NCBI RefSeq assembly: GCF_003790525.1
Contig: NZ_CP033633.1
Direction: 5' to 3' (one strand)
DNA length: 64,000 nt
Source of the DNA: Escherichia coli
GTDB lineage: Bacteria; Pseudomonadota; Gammaproteobacteria; Enterobacterales; Enterobacteriaceae
In this document: positions 1,601-52,703 of the stretch, in pieces
Layout of the letters: the number at the start of each line of letters is the position of its first letter
Position numbering within the stretch: the stretch's first letter is position 1
Program-made: the position numbers and the translations under genes
Notes under the pieces: generated by a model
What the model was told of the DNA's origin: nothing
Seen by the model: only the letters and a program-made list of their open reading frames with translations
Databases searched by the model: none

Positions 1601-4600
1601 ATGAATAAGAATATACGAATTTTACAATTTCTGGTCAGTATACTTTATTCTGTGCAGTCTCATTTTTCTAGTGCGCAAACAATACAACTGAATGGTAATG
1701 GTATACCTGAAAGTATAACCAGGAGTATTACAGGTGTTGATGGAAACGCGGCGCTTAATATCAGCGTGCCGTATAAAACAAGTTATACTCAAAATATACT
1801 ATCTGTTGAAAGCAGTATTAACATCAAAGGAGGAACAAGCAATACATCAATCGGTGGTGCAGGTGTCTACGGTGAAAACTTTACGCTAAATAATAATGGT
1901 AGTGTTTGGGGAGGAGATGGATATAATGGTGGAATTGCTGTTAGTGGCAACAAAATATCTATAAACAATTACAGAAATGTATATGGGGGTAATGGTCTTG
2001 GTGGCTCAGGAAGTAGCGGAGGTGCAGGGTTAAGCGGGGATGATATTATAGTTGATAATTACAGAAGTATATACGGAGGTGATGATGTAGGTGGGACAGG
2101 TGGTTCCGGTGTAACCGGTAGCAATATTACAGTGCATAATTCCGGAGGAATATTGGGCGGTAATGGCGTAAACGGTGGTGATGGTATTAATGGTAGTAAT
2201 CTTTTCATTACTAACGACAACATGATATCTGGAGGATATGGAATAAAACAAGGGGGAGATGCTATTTCTGGAAATCAAATCACTTTGAATAATAACGGTA
2301 TTGTTCAGGGGGGATATGGCCCCGACGGTGGTTGCTCTGTTTATGGAGAAGATATCCATATTAATAATCATGGTAATCTTTCAGGATTATATAATAGCCA
2401 AAAAGATGCTTATAATACATCAATAATTTTTTCTGGCGGGTATAATTCATTAGATATTTATTCAGATTCTGTGATTAATGGTGATATTAAACTAGCTAGT
2501 ATACCTGTTAATGGTACAAATGAATTAATTATTAAGAACATCAATAACGCAACAGCAATTAATGGTGGGCTAATGATTGGGAATGGCTCATCTGTTTATC
2601 TGTCAGGCAAGAACTCCATTTTTAACGGAAATATAAGTATTGATGAAGACGCATCTATGAACCTGTCTGTAGGAAATGCTAATGTTCACGCAAATACTAT
2701 TACATTAAAAAGTGATTCATGGCTTAATATAGACACATCAATTAAGAACTGGACTCAGGACTATTACACATTATTGTCGTCAGACACAGGTATCTCGATC
2801 GCTGATAATAGTCACATTGTACAATACAATGTATTACTGACAGAAGGTGCTGAAAGTTATGTTTATACGTCTTTAAATGACGACGATAACAAACTGATAT
2901 CCATGCTGAGATGGAATAATACAAAAGGGATGGGATATGGAACCTTTAATATAGAAAAAGATGCCACTCTGAACATAGGCGTTTCTCTTTCCGATAATCT
3001 TTCACCTTTATTATATGATGGCTGGGACGGCAAAAGTCTGACAAAATCAGGTAATGGTACTCTTATACTTTCTGCAACAAACAATTATACAGGAAATACA
3101 GAGGTTAAATCTGGCGTATTAATTCTTGCTGCACCTGATGCTCTTGGTCGGACTGAGTATTTATATTTATCCCGTGGCGCAGAACTGGATATGAATGGGT
3201 ATCCTCAGACAATAAGCAAACTACTGACGGCTGCAGGCTCTGTGCTGAACATTCATGGCGGAAGTCTGATACTGAATAATGGAGGAGAATCTGCAGGTAC
3301 TATTGCAGGGGATGGTTCTCTGAACATAAATGGGGGAATGCTTGATATAACGGGTAATAATCGTAATTTTTCCGGTGTTTTTACCGTGAATAAGGGGGCT
3401 CATTTGGCTGTATCCACGGCTGATAATCTGGGGACAGCCTTTGTTGATAACTATGGCACATTAACTCTGAACAGTACATCAGCATGGCAGCTTACCAACA
3501 ATATCAGTGGTTATGGTAATGTTCGCAAGACGGGAGCAGGTGCACTGAACATTAGCGATAACGCAAAATGGAGCGGGATGACAGATATTATTCAGGGGAC
3601 AGTGATACTGGGGAACGCAGATTCACCGGTGATGCTCGGCAGTAACCAGGTCATTGTTGAAGAGCAGGGCAAACTCTCCGGGTTTGGGGGCGTTGCAGGA
3701 AATCTGAGCAATAGTGGTATAGTCGATCTCACTACATATATGCCGGGTAATATACTGACTGTCGGAGGGAATTACACTGGCAGAAATGGACTTATTCTCC
3801 TCCAGACAGAAACAGGTGGTGACAATTCGAAAACAGATCGTCTGGTGATTAAAGGTAATGCCAGTGGCCGTACCCGTGTCGCTGTTACTCAGGCCGGTGG
3901 TTCTGGTGCAGAGACACTTAATGGGATTGAAGTGATTCACGTCAGTGGCAATGCTGATAATGCTGAATTCATTCAGACGGAACGTATTACAGCCGGAGCT
4001 TATGATTACATACTGAAACGTGGTCAGGGGATTAACAGCACTAACTGGTATCTGATTAGCAGAAAAGACATTCCTGTACCACAACCTGAAGCTGTACCGG
4101 AAAACCATGATAATAATTTGCGTCCTGAGGCAGGTAGCTATGTTGCCAGTATTGCTGCTGCAAATAATCTGTTTGTAACGAATCTGTATGAACGACAGGG
4201 ACAGGAGTTGTATATCAGCCACATGACAGGAGAAGAAAATGAAGCAGGTATCTGGATGTATAATAAAGGAAAACATAATCGCTGGCGTGACAACAGTAGT
4301 CAGCTGAGAACCCGGGGGAATAGCTACGTTGTGTTAATAGGGGGAGATATAGCTCAGTGGAGCCTGAATGGTACCGATCGCTGGCATACAGGTATGATGG
4401 CTGGCTATGGTCATAATAATAACAGTACGAATGCCCTGAGCACCGGATACCATTCGGAAGGAAGAATGAATGGATACACAGCGGGTCTTTATGCAACATG
4501 GTATGCCAATGATGAAACACACAATGGTTCTTATCTTGATAGCTGGCTGCAATACAGCTGGTTTGATAATCATATAAATGGAGAACGGCTGCCTGCTGAG

Positions 4601-40102: not shown

Positions 40103-40447
40103 GATGTCGCCGGCGGCTCCGCTTTACCCGGCCATGCGGGGCATGGCCTTGTGGGTTTTCAACTCTGTAGCCTCAGCGTCGTGTGCGGGCTGTGCCGTGC
40201 CTCCATCGTAGCCGGGCTTCTGCGGGCGGGTTGCAAGGTAAGGTGAACCGCTGCGGTCACCCGGTCCCTCCTTCCCGTCTGCCGTGATTTTCCGGTCGTT
40301 CACCCGCTCAGATTTCGCGGTCTCACCCTCCAACTCCCGTCAGCCGTGTGCGTCAGGCTGCGGCTTCCCTTGCGCCCTTGCAACCCTGCAGGCCCGGCAA
40401 AGATGGAGGCACGGCACCGCCCGGTGTCGCGGAATATGTGAACAACG
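40103..40447 (+). repeat. structured non-coding repeat, family A copy 1 (ssi/Frpo-like candidate)
   Basis: ~345 bp GC-rich, near-identical to 47056-47402; directly upstream of the klcA-like gene. Confidence 0.6.
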
Positions 40448-41744: not shown

Positions 41745-42300
41745 CTTCGGCTCCCGGCTGCCTGGCGGCATCCGGTCGTCAGGCCCGACTCCGACAGGCA
41801 GCTGCTGGCGCACCCGCCAGTCTCCGCCGAACCCGCTGGCGCGGTTTCGGGCTGTCGCTACGGTCCGATGCGTGAAAACCCGGGCTTGCAGCGACCGTTC
41901 CGGTCGCGCCGCCTCTGTCGCGCCGTGACCTGCGCTCCCTGCACACCTGACGGTGTGTGAGGAAACTGCGCCTGATGGCGCAGCAGTCTTCCCTCCTGCC
42001 GCCACCTCTGCGGCCTGTTTCCCGCTGTGGACTTTCCGGGGGGCAGACGTAACCCCCTCCCGTTCCATCTGTCCAGGGTGAGATGCACCGGCCACAAAAT
42101 TTTTAGCCATGAACCCGGCTAAAAATTTTGCGTCCGCCCCCGGACAGCTGTCCCGTGAGGCGGTAAACGGGCCCCCATCGGAAAGGTCCACTGCGGGGAG
42201 AAACCCCTGTGAAGTGGACGGCAGGAGGAGCTTTCGCTCCTCTGAAGGGGCACATGAACGTCCCGTCGCCGGTATCCGGTTTATCTCACATCTTTCAGTC
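41745..42300 (+). repeat. structured non-coding repeat, family B copy 1 (ssi/Frpo-like candidate) upstream of ssb
   Basis: ~555 bp GC-rich, many internal palindromes; paralogous to 48098-48640 and 51470-51850. Confidence 0.6.
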
Positions 42301-45202: not shown

Positions 45203-45640
45203 GTGATGAAAACTGAACTGACCCTGAATGTCCTGCAGACCATGAACGCACAGGAATATGAAGATATCCGTGCTGCGGGAAGCGATATGCGCCGTAATCT
45301 CACTCACGAGGTGATGCGTAAAGTGGACGCACCGGCTAACTGGATGATGAATGGCGAGTATGGCAGTGAGTTCGGGGGCTTTTTCCCCGTCCAGGTTCGT
45401 TTCACGCCAGCCCACGAACGTTTCCACCTGGCATTATGTTCGCCGGGAGACGTCTCTCAACTCTGGATGCTGGTTCTGGTGAATGGTGGTGGACAGCCTT
45501 TCGCCGTCGTTCAGGTGCAACATATCTTCACGCCTGTCGCGATCAGTCACACGCTGGCGCTCGCCGCGACACTTGATGCGCAGGGATACAGTGTTAACGA
45601 CATCATTCATATTTTGATGGCAGAAGGAGGTCAGGCATGA
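45203..45640 (+). CDS. psiB: PsiB, plasmid SOS inhibition protein B
   Basis: [27 protein letters not shown]...[10 protein letters not shown], near-identical to F PsiB. Confidence 0.9.
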
Positions 45641-46356
45641 GCGCACGTTCACGGGCACTGATCCCCCTCAGCGCAGAACAACAGGCCGCCATGCAGGCTG
45701 TGGCTGTCACCGAACAACGTCGTCGTCAGGGACGCACACTTTCAGCATGGCCTTATGCCAGCGCTTTCTTTCGCTGCCTGAATGGCAGTCGCCGGATTTC
45801 GCTGACCGATCTCCGCTTTTTTGCCCCTGCGCTGACGAAGGAGGAATTTCATGGCAACCGTCTCCTGTGGCTGGCTGCCGTGGATAAACTGATTGAAAGT
45901 TTTGGTGAAGTCTGTGTTCTTCCCCTGCCATCCGATGCGGGGCATCGTCTGTTCCCGTCTGTTCCTTTTCGTGAAGGTGAGCGTCGTCGTCAGAAAACCA
46001 CGCTGACAGAGCAGAAATACAGCCGCCAGCGGGAACGTGAGGCAGAACGACGGGAACTGGAATACCAGACATGTTTTGCTCAGGCGCAGATTGACCTTGC
46101 GTTTCATACTCCCGCCACGGTCGGAAGCTGGTTGTCCCGCTGGTCTGGTGCTGTTGAGGAGCATGATCTGGAAACGATTTTCTGGGGGTGGTGCGGGCGT
46201 TTTCCGTCACTGTCATCATTTGACCGGTTTTTCTGGCAGGAGGGACCACTCTGGCGGCTGATTTTTGAAGCCGGTGAGGCCGGTCGTGGTGCACCGGTAC
46301 AGGTACGTGCACTTGAGCAGTGGATGATCCCGAACAAGCTGGAGAACGTAATATGA
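45637..46356 (+). CDS. psiA: PsiA, plasmid SOS inhibition protein A
   Basis: 239-aa ORF overlapping psiB stop; [22 protein letters not shown]... Confidence 0.85.
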
Positions 46357-46949
46357 TGAAATCAGACGAAAAATATCAGGTTCCCGTGTGGATGCGACCT
46401 CTGTTGCCGTTGCTCTGCAACACCGGGGGGAACGATCCGGAAGAACTGCTGAATGATACAGCAACCACTGTCAGTGCGAATGTTGTCCGTTATGTACTGA
46501 TAGTTGCTGTGCGGTCGCAGGTTGATCTGCTGCAGATTCTGTACAGGAAAGGGCTGTTGCGCACAGAGATACCAGGTGGCTTTTCACCGGAAGAAGCGCA
46601 GGCACTCCTGGATAATCTGGTGCGCAGCCATATCAGCAGGGCGCTGTCGGGTGAGCGAATGGCAGCCCGTGACAGAAATGCCGATCTGGCCTGGATTCGA
46701 CAGCAACTGGTCGATGCCGCCTGGTTTGTCCGTGCCACACTGGAGGCGCATGGGATGGGCGTCGGAAATGAGAGTCCCCCTGCTCAGCCGGAGACAATGC
46801 CGGACATACAGACACGGGAACTGGTGATGTTGATCAAGCGACTGGCATCATCGCTGAAAGCGGTGAAACCGGACAGTTGTGTGGTGCGTGAAGCGCAGGA
46901 CTGGCTGCGCGACAGAAAACTTGTGAGCATCACGGATGTTCTTCGGTGA
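46353..46949 (+). CDS. hypothetical leading-region protein
   Basis: 198-aa ORF; ATG overlaps psiA stop (ATGA). Confidence 0.5.
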   Translation: MMKSDEKYQVPVWMRPLLPLLCNTGGNDPEELLNDTATTVSANVVRYVLIVAVRSQVDLLQILYRKGLLRTEIPGGFSPEEAQALLDNLVRSHISRALSGERMAARDRNADLAWIRQQLVDAAWFVRATLEAHGMGVGNESPPAQPETMPDIQTRELVMLIKRLASSLKAVKPDSCVVREAQDWLRDRKLVSITDVLR

Positions 46950-47055: not shown

Positions 47056-47402
47056 GGACGTCGCCGGCGGCTCCGCTTTTACCCGGCCATGCGGGGCATG
47101 GCCTTGTGGGTTTTCAGGTATGAAGCCATCGTGTCGTGTGCGGGCTGTGCCGTGCCTCCATCGTAGCCGGGCTTCTGCGGGCGGGATGCAAAGGTACGCT
47201 TCGCCGCTGCGGTCACCCGGTCCCTCCTTCCCGTCTGCCGTGATTTTCCGGTCGTTCACCCGCTCAGATTTCGCGGTCTCACCCTCCAACTCCCGTCAGC
47301 CGTGCGCGTCGGGCTGCGGCTTTCCTTGCGCCCTTGCATCCCTGCAGGCCCGGCAAGGATGGAGGCACGGCACCGCCCGGTGCCGCAGAACATGTGACTA
47401 TG
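47056..47402 (+). repeat. structured non-coding repeat, family A copy 2 (ssi/Frpo-like candidate) upstream of ardA
   Basis: Near-identical to 40103-40447. Confidence 0.6.
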
Positions 47403-48097: not shown

Positions 48098-48640
48098 CTT
48101 CGGCTCCCGGCTGCCTGGCGGCATCCGGTCGTCAGGCCCGACTCCGACAGGCAGCTGCTGGCGCACCCGCCAGTCTCCGCCGAACCCGCTGGCGCGGTTT
48201 CGGGCTGCCGCTACGGTCCGATGTCTGAAAAACCAGGCCTGCAGCGACCGTTCCGGTCGCGCCGCCCCTGTCGCGCCGGAAACGGCGCTCCCTGCACACC
48301 TGACGGTGTGTAAGGCCACTGCGCCTGATGGCGCAGTTGTCTGCCCTTCCGCCGCCACCCCTGCGGCCTGTTTCCCGCTGTGGACTTTCCGGGGGCTGAA
48401 GCGGCCACAACACGTTTCAGCCGTCCAGGGGAGAGATGTACCAGCCACAAAACTTTTTGCCGCAGGCGTCAAAAACTTTTGCGTCTGCCCCCGGACAACT
48501 GCCCCGTGCCGTGGCAGTCGCTGCCCCATCGGAAAGGTCCACTGCGGGGAGAAACCCCGAAGAAGTGGACGGCAGAAGGGGCTTTCGCCCCTCCGGGGAA
48601 TAACCGGTCGGCCCGGCGACCTGATTCAGCAGAAGGAGAC
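48098..48640 (+). repeat. structured non-coding repeat, family B copy 2
   Basis: Paralogue of 41745-42300. Confidence 0.6.
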
Positions 48641-48646
48641 GTTTTC

Positions 48647-49081
48647 ATGACAGTCAGCAGCACGATTTCCGTTTTTTGCCGAGACGGGGTGTTCCGTACC
48701 GTTTACTGCCACCTGCACGGTGAGCCGACCTGGAACGGTCGCATCCTGCATACCCACTATGCCACCGGTCAGCTGGCCGAAGCCCTGGTTGAACACGGAG
48801 ATATCCGTTGCCTCGGTCCCCGTTGCGACAAACCCGCCGGGCATACGCTTCAGAACCCGGTGGACGGTGTGACGGCTTATTACGGACGTGACAGTGGTTT
48901 CCGGATGGACAGTGAAGCGCGTGAGTACCGCTCTTTCAGGGAGGCTATTGCCACTGAAAGCACAGAAGAGGTGCGCTTCCATTATGTGTTCATCGACGGC
49001 TACTGGAAGGTGATGTACCGCACGCCGGAAGGCTGGAAGATGAAAGCGCTCGCGCTGGCACTGCGTCGCTGTCCGGAATGA
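48647..49081 (+). CDS. hypothetical leading-region protein (Cys/His-containing)
   Basis: 144 aa from ATG 48647 (MTVSSTISVFCRDGVFRTVYCHLHGEPTWNGR...); SD aggaga 9 nt upstream. Confidence 0.55.
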   Translation: MTVSSTISVFCRDGVFRTVYCHLHGEPTWNGRILHTHYATGQLAEALVEHGDIRCLGPRCDKPAGHTLQNPVDGVTAYYGRDSGFRMDSEAREYRSFREAIATESTEEVRFHYVFIDGYWKVMYRTPEGWKMKALALALRRCPE

Positions 49082-49173: not shown

Positions 49174-49440
49174 ATGAGGCCATCAATTATCTTCGCAACC
49201 GCCGAGTATGTAAAGCGTCTGCGTGAAGAGTGCCGGCGGGAGAACAAACCCCTGCACCGCCATACCCGCTTCAGACGCCAGGAACTGGCACCGGATGAGA
49301 TTAACCCGGACGTCCTGGCGATGGGCGGTCATATCGCCAGACGCTGCAGTGAGCGGAAGCGGGTGCGTATCCCCGCCATGAAAGTCAGCGAATGGGGCCA
49401 CCTGCTCCGCGCGCTTGAAATTGAGCGGGTCTGCCACTGA
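49174..49440 (+). CDS. hypothetical basic small protein
   Basis: 88 aa from ATG 49174 (MRPSIIFATAEYVKRLREE...); SD ggaga upstream. Confidence 0.45.
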   Translation: MRPSIIFATAEYVKRLREECRRENKPLHRHTRFRRQELAPDEINPDVLAMGGHIARRCSERKRVRIPAMKVSEWGHLLRALEIERVCH

Positions 49441-49504: not shown

Positions 49505-50467
49505 GTGAGTAAGAAGAAAACCACCACGACGCCCACGCCGCATGATGCCGCGTTCCGGTCGTTCCTGGCGAACCCCGACGTCGCCAGAGATTTTCTGGAA
49601 CTGCATCTTCCGGCGGAGTACCGGCAGTTGTGCGACCTGTCCACGCTGAAGCTGGAACCCGCCACCTTTGTTGAGCCGGACCTGCATCAGTACGCCAGCG
49701 ATATCCTCTGGAGTGTGAAAACCACCGGGGGTGAAGACGGCTATATTTATACGCTCATCGAGCACCAGAGCACCGAAAATCTGTACATGCCTTTCCGCAT
49801 GTTACGTTACAGTGTGGCGGCGATGCAGAGACATCTGGAGCAGCACAAAACATTGCCACTGGTGATTCCGGTGCTGTTCTATCATGGTGAGCGCAGCCCG
49901 TACCCGTACAGCATGAACTGGCTGGACTGTTTTGAGGATCCGGCGCTTGCGGCTAAAATATACACAAAGCCGTTTCCGCTGGTTGATATCACTGTCGTTG
50001 ATGACAATGAAATCATGAACCATCGCCGGATGGCCGCACTGACGCTGCTGATGAAGCATATCCGCCATCGTGACATGATGGAGCTGCTGGACAAACTCCC
50101 GCAGGTCATGGTGGAAATTTCAGACGAGCAGGTGCGTGTTCTGATTCATTACATCGTTAACGCAGGGGACTCTGTATCACCGGAATTTATGCGGGCGCTG
50201 GCTGAGCGTCTGCCGCAGCATGAGGATAAACTGATGACTATTGCCGAACGTCTTGAGCAGCAAGGAATACAGAAAGGAATACAGCAGGGAATACAGCAGG
50301 GAATACAGCAGGGAATACAGCAGGGAATACAGCAGGGAATACAGAAAGGCCGCATGGAGGAGAAGCAGGATATTGCGCGTCAGCTTCAGAAAACGGGAAT
50401 GCCATCTGCACAAATCTGTCAGATCACCGGACTTTCCGAAGCTGAACTGAAGAACATCACTCACTGA
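49505..50467 (+). CDS. Rpn-family (YhgA-like, PD-(D/E)XK) recombination-promoting nuclease with repeat-containing C-terminal tail
   Basis: GTG start with SD caggagga; N-terminal HDAAFRSFL...DFLELHLP...IEHQS...FRMLRYS motifs; C-terminal GIQ[QK] x7 repeat then conserved tail. Confidence 0.75.
   Translation: MSKKKTTTTPTPHDAAFRSFLANPDVARDFLELHLPAEYRQLCDLSTLKLEPATFVEPDLHQYASDILWSVKTTGGEDGYIYTLIEHQSTENLYMPFRMLRYSVAAMQRHLEQHKTLPLVIPVLFYHGERSPYPYSMNWLDCFEDPALAAKIYTKPFPLVDITVVDDNEIMNHRRMAALTLLMKHIRHRDMMELLDKLPQVMVEISDEQVRVLIHYIVNAGDSVSPEFMRALAERLPQHEDKLMTIAERLEQQGIQKGIQQGIQQGIQQGIQQGIQQGIQKGRMEEKQDIARQLQKTGMPSAQICQITGLSEAELKNITH
50234..50467 (+). CDS. putative intragenic small ORF (RpnS-like) from an internal in-frame SD+ATG within the Rpn gene
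   Basis: gagga-N7-ATG at 50234; product MTIAERLEQQ(GIQx)n...TGLSEAELKNITH parallels the two stand-alone downstream cassettes. Confidence 0.4.
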   Translation: MTIAERLEQQGIQKGIQQGIQQGIQQGIQQGIQQGIQKGRMEEKQDIARQLQKTGMPSAQICQITGLSEAELKNITH

Positions 50468-50475
50468 TGAGAACC

Positions 50476-50506
50476 ACAAAGCCCGGCAAAATGCCGGGTT
50501 TTTTTG
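50476..50506 (+). terminator. hairpin + T-run after the Rpn gene
   Basis: aagcccggcaaaatgccgggttttttt. Confidence 0.6.
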
Positions 50507-50529
50507 TCAGCAGGAGCAGAGCAAACAGT

Positions 50530-50703
50530 ATGACGATTGCAGAACGTCTTGAGCAAAAAGGTCGCCAGGAGGGCAGGATGGAAGGTGCGCTTGAAAAAGC
50601 CCTGGCTATTGCGTGCCAGCTTCAGAAAATGGGGATGACGCCGGAGCAGATTAAGCAGGCTACCGGACTGTCCGAAGCTGAACTGAAAAAAATCATTCAC
50701 TGA
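50530..50703 (+). CDS. stand-alone Rpn C-terminal-tail paralogue (orphan RpnS-like cassette 1)
   Basis: 57 aa MTIAERLEQKGRQEGRMEGALEKALAIACQLQKMGMTPEQIKQATGLSEAELKKIIH; own SD and ATG. Confidence 0.5.
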   Translation: MTIAERLEQKGRQEGRMEGALEKALAIACQLQKMGMTPEQIKQATGLSEAELKKIIH

Positions 50704-50714
50704 TGAGAGCATCA

Positions 50715-50743
50715 CAGCCCGGAAGAATGCCGGGCTTTTTTGC
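50715..50743 (+). terminator. hairpin + T-run after cassette 1
   Basis: cagcccggaagaatgccgggctttttt. Confidence 0.6.
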
Positions 50744-50761
50744 CAGCAGGGGCAGAGCAGT

Positions 50762-50992
50762 ATGACTATTGCAGAACGTCTTATACAGAAAGGTTTCGAC
50801 GAAGGTTTTAAAGAAAGTTTTAAAGAAAGTTTTAAAGAAGGCTTTAAAGAAGGCTTTAAAGAAGGGGCGCTTGAAGTGGCGCGGGAAATAGCCTGCCGGC
50901 TGCGGGATATAGGCTGGCCGCCGGAACGGATTCAGGAGGTCACGGGACTTTCCGGTGAAGAACTGAAAAAGCTGTTTCCTGATGAGCAGTAG
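50762..50992 (+). CDS. stand-alone Rpn C-terminal-tail paralogue (orphan RpnS-like cassette 2) with FKE[SG] repeats
   Basis: 76 aa MTIAERLIQKGFDEGFKESFKESFKEGFKEGFKEGALEVAREIACRLRDIGWPPERIQEVTGLSGEELKKLFPDEQ. Confidence 0.5.
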   Translation: MTIAERLIQKGFDEGFKESFKESFKEGFKEGFKEGALEVAREIACRLRDIGWPPERIQEVTGLSGEELKKLFPDEQ

Positions 50993-51022
50993 CCTGGCAT
51001 TCAGCCAGGCTGTGAATCATGC

Positions 51023-51274
51023 TCACACATCCTCTGCCGTTTCCCCCAGTTCATTTTCCAGACGCCTGATGATATCTGCCTTACGCATCCCCTGCATGTG
51101 AGGCAGCAGGTCACGGACTGAAAGAGCCTGGGTGGTCCTCCAGACGGTGACGTCCACCTGTTCCGCATTTTCCCAGGCGTGCCATGTTCTCTGCGTCACG
51201 CCAAATTCTCTGGCCGCTTTTTCGCGTGACCAGAGCATGCTTTTTCGCCAGATTCGCAGTTCCCAGCCGGTCAT
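51023..51274 (-). CDS. small putative DNA-binding regulator (HTH-like), antisense to the leading-region block
   Basis: 83-aa ORF; promoter-side intergenic region carries GTGAA-N5-TTCAC palindromes. Confidence 0.4.
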   Translation of the reverse strand: MTGWELRIWRKSMLWSREKAAREFGVTQRTWHAWENAEQVDVTVWRTTQALSVRDLLPHMQGMRKADIIRRLENELGETAEDV

Positions 51275-51469: not shown

Positions 51470-51850
51470 TTTTCTCCGGTCGCGCCGGATGCGGCGCTCC
51501 CTGCACACCTGACGGTGTGTAAGGCCACTGCGCCTGATGGCGCAGCTGTCTCTGCCTGTCTGCCGCCGCACTGCGGCCCGTTCTCCGCAGACGAACTTTC
51601 CGGGGGTACATACACGACCACATCCCGTTTCAGTCGTCCAGGGGAGAGATGTACCAGCCACAAAACTTTTTGCCGCAGGCGTCAAAAACTTTTGCGTCTG
51701 CCCCCGGACAACTGCCCCGTGACGTGGTGAGCGTCCCCCGTCGGAAAGGTCCACTGCGGGGAAATCCCCGAAGACCCGGACGGCAGAAGGAGCTTCGCTC
51801 CTCCGGGAAATGACCTGGCTGACCCGGCAGTCGTGACGATGAGGAGACAA
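51470..51850 (+). repeat. structured non-coding repeat, family B copy 3 (5'-truncated)
   Basis: Collinear with the 3' ~380 bp of 48098-48640. Confidence 0.55.
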
Positions 51851-51854
51851 TGTG

Positions 51855-52703
51855 ATGAATCAGACTTTACCCACTGCTGACCTGAATACTGCCGGCACGA
51901 CAGATGTTATTCCGTCTGTGGCTATCGACCGCATCATCGCGCAGCGTAACGAAGGTATTGCACTGTTCATGCAGGCGATGGAATGCCTGGCGACAGCGCG
52001 CAGGATTCTGCTCGATGCGTCAGGTGATATTTTTCTTTACGGGTTTGAAGACTGCGTGACTGATTCCGTTCGTCGCATGGATAAACCGGAAGAAGCGAAA
52101 AGGAATATCACCCGTCTTGCCGACCGGAAAATCTGGGACCGCCTGATGACAGATACGGGCATGTACACCTTCATGAGTTCATGCCAGCGTGATGAGTGGA
52201 ACAGCCAGCTGATGAGCGACACCTGTCCTGAAATCATCCTGGACAATGTACTGGCAACATTCCGCCATCTGAATGCCAGCAAAATGCAGACATTTGAACA
52301 GGGACTGATTGATGTCTACCGGAAATTGTCATGGGATTACAGAACCAATAATCCCTGCCGTCTGGGCAAGAGAATCATTATTGAAAACCTGCTGTACCGC
52401 TGGAGTAACGGGCGTGTGACGCTGGACTGCAGCGGGCGGGAGGCACTGGATGACCTGGTACGTCCGTTTTATCTGCTGGATGGGCGCAACATTCCTGACT
52501 TCCGGAGCAGCATCGGGGCGCAGTATGGTGAATTTCTCGGGAACGGCGACAATGTCGGTAAGCTGTTAGAAGGGGAATATTTTACGGTGCGTGGCTACCA
52601 GAAAGGGACCGTACACATTGTCTTTAAGCGTTCTGACCTTGTTGAAAAACTGAATGATATTATTGCACGGCATTATCCTGGTGCATTGCCGCCACGAGTC
52701 TGA
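51855..52703 (+). CDS. hypothetical leading-region protein
   Basis: 282 aa from ATG 51855 (MNQTLPTADLNTAGT...); SD gaggag 8 nt upstream; last co-oriented gene before the oriT region. Confidence 0.55.
   Translation: MNQTLPTADLNTAGTTDVIPSVAIDRIIAQRNEGIALFMQAMECLATARRILLDASGDIFLYGFEDCVTDSVRRMDKPEEAKRNITRLADRKIWDRLMTDTGMYTFMSSCQRDEWNSQLMSDTCPEIILDNVLATFRHLNASKMQTFEQGLIDVYRKLSWDYRTNNPCRLGKRIIIENLLYRWSNGRVTLDCSGREALDDLVRPFYLLDGRNIPDFRSSIGAQYGEFLGNGDNVGKLLEGEYFTVRGYQKGTVHIVFKRSDLVEKLNDIIARHYPGALPPRV

Follow-up and report, generated by a model that had tools for sequence, protein, structure and literature searches.

The stretch of DNA analysed here, called the window throughout, comprises 64,000 nucleotides (nt) of Escherichia coli contig NZ_CP033633.1 (assembly GCF_003790525.1). 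It is 100% identical to the E. coli AR_0085 plasmid NZ_CP029742.1, which is of type IncK2/Z, MOBP and MPF_I. The window carries a gene for a full-length Rpn/YhgA-like nuclease, rpnL, followed on the same strand by two small open reading frames (ORFs), referred to as orphan tails, that resemble only the C-terminal tail of the nuclease. By its sequence, the locus is a plasmid-borne member of the Rpn toxin-antitoxin and defence family. Its features are listed below with their positions in the window.

49505..50467, + strand: rpnL, full-length Rpn/YhgA-like PD-(D/E)XK nuclease of 320 amino acids (aa) with a Q-type tail; GTG start; the same coding sequence (CDS) is given by the Prokaryotic Genome Annotation Pipeline (PGAP)
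50234..50467, + strand: candidate RpnS antitoxin, 77 aa, an in-frame internal ORF read from the sequence; Shine-Dalgarno (SD) motif GAGGA at 50219-50223
50258..50344, + strand: 12-nt tandem array of 7.2 copies coding for (GIQQ)n in helix 1 of the tail (Tandem Repeats Finder, TRF)
50479..50505, + strand: intrinsic-terminator-like hairpin with T7, part of spacer IG-A; RNA fold of -22.5 kcal/mol, z -4.8
50530..50703, + strand: orphan tail 1, R type, RpnSs-like, 57 aa, ATG start (BLASTP against the parent)
50716..50742, + strand: second terminator-like hairpin with T6, part of spacer IG-B; RNA fold of -16.8 kcal/mol
50762..50992, + strand: orphan tail 2, F type, RpnSs-like, 76 aa, ATG start (BLASTP against the parent)
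50790..50865, + strand: 12-nt tandem array of 6.3 copies coding for (FKEG/FKES)n (TRF)
50991..51011, no strand assigned: hairpin past the last tail, homologous to the terminators and without a T-run; -18.5 kcal/mol
51023..51274, - strand: helix-turn-helix (HTH) regulator gene, 83 aa, convergent and bounding the array; annotated in all related loci

Anatomy of the tail units

The 320-aa ORF and the two short ORFs had been reported in a preliminary description made from the letters of the window, and all three are found in the sequence as it placed them. That description had also claimed that the small ORFs resemble only the tail of the parent, that an in-frame SD and ATG lie inside the parent gene at 50234, and that each small ORF has an SD and ATG of its own; these claims hold. 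In BLASTP, both small ORFs match the C-terminal region of the parent only and do so far beyond chance. Tail 1 aligns with parent residues 244-320 (E 3e-14, 47% identity) and tail 2 with residues 244-318 (E 2e-16, 39% identity), and each starts exactly at Met244. The internal ATG is preceded by GAGGA 7 nt upstream (GAGGA-N7-ATG), while AGGAG lies 13 nt before the ATG of tail 1 and AGGGG 9 nt before that of tail 2.

At the DNA level, all three units share a 5' box, ATGACTATTGCAGAACGTCTT, the 3' part of the ORF and the entire spacer, and the ORF middle between the conserved boxes is divergent. The conserved 3' box of each unit reads …ACCGGACTTTCCGAAGCTGAACTGAA…TGATGAG-hairpin-CAGCAGGRGCAGAGCA. 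Between the units there are only 59-62 nt, which are filled by the hairpin and the SD and hold no additional ORF. The preliminary description had credited each small ORF with its own upstream hairpin and T-run. The hairpins (50479-50505 and 50716-50742), rich in G+C, are real; they are terminators of the preceding unit, not signals of the small ORFs.

The conserved CTGATGAG acts as a double stop in Q and R units; in the F unit a different frame is used at this point, and the F tail therefore ends in ...FPDEQ (50975-50992). The extra C-terminal residues of the F tail derive from this former stop region.

An extended form of tail 1, starting at ATG 50467 and 78 aa long, would run through the terminator hairpin and overlap the rpn stop (TGATG, 50465-50469). 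It is annotated by PGAP in several plasmids. This start was rejected as functional because the frame is not kept in the IG-B and IG-A' spacers (64 and 67 nt), and the 78-aa form is probably an annotation artefact rather than a case of translational coupling.

Family identity of the nuclease and its tails

The rpnL product matches PF04754 (YhgA-like putative transposase, Pfam) over residues 11-207 with E 1.3e-78, and TIGR01784 (Rpn family, NCBIfam) with 192 bits against a cutoff of 52. These profile searches bear out its earlier assignment to the Rpn/YhgA-like nucleases. The N-domain is 51-57% identical to K-12 RpnA-E. RpnL contains D66 (SDILW) and E86-H-Q88 (IEHQS), and we take D66 and E86-x-Q88 to be the PD-(D/E)XK catalytic positions as known from the RpnA literature. 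Full-length Rpn gave no match to PDB sequences at E 0.01. PADLOC holds no Rpn model, and the tail matches only its 'putative invertase' model PDLC01084, weakly.

The small ORFs match TIGR01784 at C-terminal positions 219-273 only. Tail 1 gives a full-length but weak match to PDB 7TH0, the structure of RpnA-S (E 0.013, phmmer). The AlphaFold2 model of tail 2 is all-helical and of moderate confidence, with a predicted local distance difference test score (pLDDT) of 67. Foldseek ranks Hin HTH and 7TH0 on top for this model, neither of them significantly, with 7TH0 at rank 2 (E about 1); the model is consistent with an HTH-like helical domain and is not proof of one. Designed PPR repeat proteins topped the PDB matches of a tail query and were rejected as artefacts, in which weak repeat matches add up. 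Fused as well as free homologous tails bear a precomputed PF27070 assignment, among them relatives of tail 2 that are 93-95% identical. Recent PGAP records name the orphans 'Rpn/YhgA-type helix-turn-helix domain-containing protein' or 'RpnC/YadD family protein' (H281, H287 and others), and in older records the orphans are hypothetical or tail 1 is unannotated.

For comparison, 20 loci from IncI1 (including ColIb-P9), IncI-gamma/K1 and IncK2/Z plasmids were set beside the window. The MT[IL]AERL start is kept in these 21 loci and in the homologues listed. Three tail types are distinguished by their repeats.

Type Q: repeat GIQQ; subtypes Qa and Qb
Type R: repeat RMEG; core G-RQEG-(RMEG)n-ALEKALAIACQLQKMGMTPEQIKQATGLS
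Type F: repeat FKEG; core G-(FKEG)n-ALEVAREIACRLRD…LFPDEQ

The 4-aa repeats begin at residue 10-11 of each tail, within the 8-20 residues after the initiating Met that are typical of RpnS, and their number varies among plasmids in all three types, in line with what Zhong et al. found for RpnS and RpnSs. Tail lengths are 65-77 aa for Q, 53-69 aa for R and 52-76 aa for F, in steps of whole 4-aa units. The Q array has 3-7 copies in related plasmids and the F array 0-6, the window having the maximum for F. Neither array had been mentioned in the preliminary description.

Relation to described Rpn systems

Rpn genes are gene-within-gene toxin-antitoxin (TA) systems (Zhong et al. 2023 PNAS, PMC10400941). 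Translation from an internal start yields RpnS, which inhibits the endonuclease RpnL; helix 1 of RpnS carries 4-aa repeats, whose number is hypervariable between strains and sets the L-S specificity (PMC10400941). The internal start at 50234 lies at the place where Zhong et al. showed RpnS initiation, in agreement with the earlier proposal of a toxin with an intragenic inhibitor. Free-standing downstream RpnSs genes occur on chromosomes and plasmids (DUF4351), such as ypaA after rpnE and rpnCSs after rpnC. They also vary in their repeats, and either a deletion or the joining of the N-domain with the RpnSs region can remove them (PMC10400941). In ECOR13, the plasmid-borne RpnL/RpnS pair RpnP2 confers protection from T-even phages, and RpnP2L is toxic when on its own (PMC10400941).

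Like rpnE-ypaA and rpnC-rpnCSs, the present locus consists of an Rpn gene with an internal M-T-I-A-E-R-L start, followed by a tail-only gene on the same strand. As in rpnE-ypaA, orphan and fused tail differ in the number of 4-aa repeats, K-12 YpaA having one unit more than the RpnE tail. Fusion loss of RpnSs, as in the examples of Zhong et al., is also present here, in locus L021. Unlike rpnE-ypaA, the present locus has two tandem orphans of two other tail types that are 39-48% identical to the fused tail and not near-copies of it, and it lies in the leading region of a conjugative plasmid. Moreover, ypaA begins 13 nt past rpnE, whereas the spacers here are 62-68 nt long and carry a terminator-like hairpin.

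The main text of Zhong et al. (PMC10400941) makes no mention of two orphans in tandem or of a leading-region site, and a literature search turned up no further RpnSs paper beside it. The preliminary description had known of no Rpn locus with tandem orphan tails. Single downstream RpnSs genes and their loss by fusion are published, and only the tandem pair is absent from that main text. The interpretation given in the preliminary description was largely right but mostly already published, as far as toxin, intragenic inhibitor and free tail are concerned; added here are the tails as exchangeable cassettes, the tandem orphans and the leading-region site.

Contact-dependent inhibition (CDI) and Rhs systems keep displaced C-terminal cassettes in tandem behind cdiA or rhs, with a common homology box, and these can be re-fused by recombination. 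The orphan toxin-tip/immunity arrays of cdiA and rhs are thus alike to the present array as displaced tandem C-terminal cassettes with a homology box and refusion. Unlike CDI/Rhs, the present locus has no separate immunity gene for each cassette, as no ORF lies between the units, and the tail itself would be the antitoxin. The toxin domain here is the constant N-terminal part and not the variable C-terminal one, and it is intracellular rather than delivered. The likeness is an analogy of mechanism only.

Distribution and architecture across plasmids

In megablast, the locus is present in 2,021 plasmid records, nearly all conjugative, from E. coli, Salmonella and Shigella. It occurs in 1,341/5,426 complete E. 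coli genomes, about a quarter. In these complete genomes the tail DNA is almost solely plasmid-borne, at 2,556 plasmid places versus 29 chromosomal ones. All 20 related loci have the same synteny, namely ardA, two hypothetical ORFs, rpn, the tail or tails, the convergent HTH gene, DUF4942, mobC-like and nikA. With N standing for the nuclease domain, the tails are arranged as follows.

N-R-F: 9 loci
N-Qb-F: 4 loci, including ColIb-P9
N-Qa-R-F: the window and 4 others
N-Qb-R-F: 1 locus (L004)
N-F, without an orphan: 1 locus (L021)
Divergent plasmid with a mosaic orphan (front of the fused tail, F-type end): 1 locus (L020)

In tblastn, an R-type tail lies under the Rpn CDS in nearly all plasmids sampled, and is an orphan in the window. 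The F-type tail stands as a small ORF of its own in about 2,030 records, and a single exception was sampled. The three-tail array is rare, with about 19 Q-to-R junction matches, or about 1% of the family, counting only full-length matches in a single piece (H211-H229 without H222). A count of 924 three-tail arrays at >=80% coverage was discarded as meaningless, as the junction query joined separate pieces of two-tail plasmids.

Two loci depart from the common arrangements. In L021 (NZ_CP076056.1, from a laboratory transconjugant strain; locus 2772-3695), the N-domain is fused directly to an F-type tail and there is no orphan. In L020 (NZ_CP030289.1, Salmonella Gaminara pIncI1.1; locus 3221-3701), the orphan nearly duplicates the fused tail, is two 4-aa units shorter and has an F-like C-terminus (…KKLFAD), which suggests gene conversion between fused and free tails. 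Two plasmids of roughly 192 kb, NZ_OY754359.1 and NZ_OY757127.1, carry the whole rpn-tail locus twice, near 95.9 kb and near 130.5 kb. Each has probably arisen as a cointegrate of two I-complex plasmids and would, as such, be a natural two-Rpn replicon.

Exchange of tails as units

Orphan tail 1 of the window equals the fused tail of pBCE049-2 (L002, N-R-F), with 100% aa identity and 2 nt differences in 174. The N-domain DNA of the two loci is 99.2% identical, and the R tail with its following spacer is identical at 229/232 positions; the window and L002 therefore differ by exactly one unit. This unit is the Qa tail with its spacer (50234-50529, 296 nt). Two spacer types occur, IG-A of 68 nt and IG-B of 64 nt; with these included, the window reads N-Qa-IGA-R-IGB-F, compared with N-R-IGB-F in L002. 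The Qb loci have another N-domain allele, which is 88.5-88.8% identical. In L004, an N-domain of the ColIb-P9 type and a Qb tail with its spacer are joined to R-IGB-F of the L002 type. Unequal crossing-over within the 5' box, with a ColIb-P9-like plasmid and an L002-like one as partners, would yield such a locus together with a reciprocal N-F fusion, of the kind found in L021. Some database proteins have chimeric tails too, such as P0008, in which a Q front is followed by an R back. Each exchange event may have been an insertion or a deletion.

Scores of the orphans are higher with the plasmid tails than with those of K-12. Because the R orphan equals the fused tail of siblings with a 99.2% identical N-domain, the orphans appear to derive from tails of the local rpn lineage and not from other RpnSs.

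These exchanges could also be read as the work of a dedicated variation system, in which the orphans are silent cassettes that donate tails for escape from phage or plasmid inhibitors and are not needed as proteins. The conserved 5' and 3' homology boxes flanking a divergent core are what such donors would have, and the same cassette is indeed seen fused or free, along with chimeric tails, an N-F fusion and a unit-precise indel. Zhong et al. have speculated that RpnL itself may promote tail recombination (PMC10400941). However, no recombinase, inverted repeats or site-specific signals were found at the locus, and direct repeats lead to deletion and duplication rather than to reversible switching. 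Each plasmid lineage has a stable architecture, and only about 1% of records show the three-tail form. For these reasons dedicated switching is quite improbable. In addition, start codon, SD and frame are kept and the ratio of non-synonymous to synonymous polymorphism (pN/pS) is <1, none of which silent cassettes would need. The preliminary description had spoken of a reservoir of alternative tail cassettes. That idea stands as an evolutionary process, seen in fused and free cassettes, chimeras and unit-precise indels; nothing indicates programmed switching.

Sequence constraint on the orphans

An intact orphan ORF with the MTIAERL start is present in 20/20 loci and in all 120 F-type protein clusters listed, and all 120 of these listed clusters are small proteins. 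Orphan length changes in multiples of 12 nt only. Pooled pairwise comparisons of the non-repeat cores gave a pN/pS of 0.30 over 15 DNA alleles of F and of 0.11 over 7 alleles of R; the comparisons are short and not independent of each other. In the non-repeat core compared, the fused allele of L002 and the three orphan R alleles have only synonymous differences. This constraint argues against neutral decay of the orphans.

The orphans might nonetheless be non-functional remnants of tandem duplications, untranslated and decaying. In favour of this, each orphan has a terminator ahead of it and no detected promoter, RefSeq lists ypaA, the counterpart in K-12, as a pseudogene, and PGAP often leaves tail 1 out. 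Pure remnants are very unlikely, however, because of the constraint described above and near-universal retention: the ORFs are intact in every locus and cluster examined, they change in 12-nt steps only with a pN/pS of 0.11-0.30, and the F orphan is kept in about 2,000 plasmids across IncI1, IncI-gamma/K1 and IncK2/Z. The YpaA protein, moreover, was detected by tagging (Zhong et al., PMC10400941).

The leading region and candidate single-strand promoters

The preliminary description had placed the locus in the conjugative leading region, and the order and direction of its genes agree with this. The genes are klcA-like, ssb, parB-like, psiA, ardA, two hypothetical ORFs, rpn, the tails, HTH (- strand), DUF4942, mobC-like (- strand), nikA and the relaxase. 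All + strand genes from klcA-like through DUF4942 point to oriT/nikA, which is the T-strand orientation known from leading-region genes. The elements directly upstream of rpn are as follows.

48098..48593, - strand: Frpo/ssi-like single-strand promoter candidate upstream of the putative rpn operon, found by folding of single-stranded DNA (ssDNA)
48647..49081, + strand: 144-aa hypothetical ORF, the first gene past the hairpin; annotated CDS
49174..49440, + strand: 88-aa hypothetical ORF; annotated CDS, kept in all 20 related loci

As ssDNA, the template strand of 48230-48650 folds into one long hairpin (-131.9 kcal/mol, z -9.7), some 50 nt ahead of the first ORF in the putative rpn operon. The hairpin element is present three times (41745-42242, 48098-48593 and 51476-51727), and the copies are 83-96% identical. 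They lie upstream of the parB-like/psi genes, the rpn operon and the DUF4942 gene, respectively. Three class-1 ssi/Frpo promoters have been mapped in IncI1 pESBL (PMC12672017), and the three hairpin copies are probably the class-1 ssi/Frpo single-strand promoters of I-complex plasmids. The rpn operon thus resembles the Frpo/ssi-driven leading genes of IncI1 and F plasmids in its site next to oriT, its T-strand orientation and its long upstream ssDNA hairpin repeated three times. The papers on Frpo/ssi (PMC11541004, PMC12672017) name no Rpn/YhgA genes, and the rpn operon is placed in this group by position. Judged by the hairpin, rpn and its tails would be expressed early on entry into a recipient.

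Several neighbouring elements were also noted. The 144-aa ORF (48647-49081) has no NCBIfam or PADLOC match; records variously label it 'post-segregation killing protein PndC' or 'hypothetical', and the PndC name looks unreliable. The 88-aa ORF (49174-49440) has no family match in NCBIfam or PADLOC either. The DUF4942 gene (51852-52703), without an NCBIfam match, immediately follows an Frpo-like element of its own, and no other leading-region gene lies between it and oriT. Another repeat pair, unrelated to the hairpin element (40123-40441 and 47078-47397, 92-94% identical), is found upstream of ssb and ardA. This pair may represent the 'class 2' ssDNA promoters, which in pESBL lie upstream of klcA and ardA (PMC12672017). 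An IS150 copy at about 45378-46747, on the opposite strand between psiA and ardA, breaks the co-oriented leading region.

The location raises the question of whether the orphans serve as anti-defence or immunity proteins, expressed early from the transferred strand, against non-self RpnL with R or F tails, encoded by resident related plasmids or by the host. A displaced old tail would then be retained because it still neutralises the older-type RpnL of resident siblings, and the array would be a record of past tail replacements, like the orphan immunity genes of CDI/Rhs, as well as a weapon between plasmids. The leading-region site, the orientation and the Frpo-like hairpin fit this reading. 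Samuel et al. 2024 (PMC11541004) report that TA systems and orphan antitoxins are enriched in leading regions, and propose an anti-defence role of this kind for orphan antitoxins. The R orphan has the same aa sequence as the fused tail of a sibling RpnL, R is the commonest fused type in I-complex plasmids, and both orphans mismatch their own RpnL in tail type or length.

Other observations count against it, and this role of the orphans is rather doubtful. The orphans do not mimic K-12 chromosomal tails; compared with rpnA-E and ypaA they reach 32-48% identity, no better than paralogues, which lends no support to K-12 chromosomal Rpn as a target, and tails are nearly all plasmid-borne (2556 versus 29 chromosomal places). 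As F-type RpnL is rare, the universal F orphan would be almost without a target. Repeat number is hypervariable, and a fixed orphan would cover only a fraction of the variants. Entry exclusion and incompatibility also limit encounters between sibling plasmids, and early expression is deduced here from position.

Proposed mechanism

The explanation that best fits the locus, and that we consider probable with some reserve, is an RpnL/RpnS module accompanied by two RpnSs genes, which are reshuffled by unequal recombination and whose products act as type-matched antitoxin partners. RpnL, at 320 aa, is predicted to be a PD-(D/E)XK DNA endonuclease. Its last 77 residues are probably also made alone, from the start at 50234, as the antitoxin RpnS. 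RpnS would bind the same domain within RpnL via its long first helix, and the 4-aa repeats would set the length of that helix. The two downstream ORFs would be RpnSs genes of the other tail types, R and F.

The orphans would have arisen, and would still reshuffle, by unequal homologous recombination between tail units. Replacement or insertion of a tail would push the former tail downstream, and deletion would fuse a downstream tail to the nuclease domain. Translation of the orphans would take place at a low level, by read-through of leaky terminators. Their products may then act as extra antitoxin-type partners for any RpnL with matching tail type and length, and may keep immunity to tail variants that circulate in sibling plasmids.

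Several points weigh against this explanation. The orphans differ in tail type and length from their own Q7 RpnL, and neither would be expected to neutralise it if the repeat-number rule of Zhong et al. applies. A matching F-type RpnL is rare, with one fused case (L021), and the target of the near-universal F orphan is therefore unclear. The promoter scan found no sigma-70-like site for either orphan, its sole + strand match lying inside rpn at chance level (49932-49959, 9/12). A strong terminator-like hairpin precedes each orphan, and transcription of the orphans would therefore need read-through. For tail 1, the SD spacing of 13 nt is long. The structural model of tail 2 has the moderate pLDDT given above together with a non-significant 7TH0 match, and the pN/pS values have the weakness of short, non-independent comparisons. 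In RNA-seq of early IncI1 conjugation, induction did not extend to all leading genes, and the text of the study does not mention rpn by name (PMC12672017).

Significance of the locus

The locus resides on IncI-complex plasmids, which spread extended-spectrum β-lactamase (ESBL) and other resistance genes. With three tail types that move between fused and free positions, a near-universal F orphan and a site next to oriT behind a candidate single-strand promoter, natural alleles are at hand on which the role of RpnSs becomes testable. Should the orphans be no more than extra antitoxins, the locus would be an ordinary representative of its family. If they are cross-immunity factors, Rpn would join the systems of plasmid establishment and of competition between plasmids.

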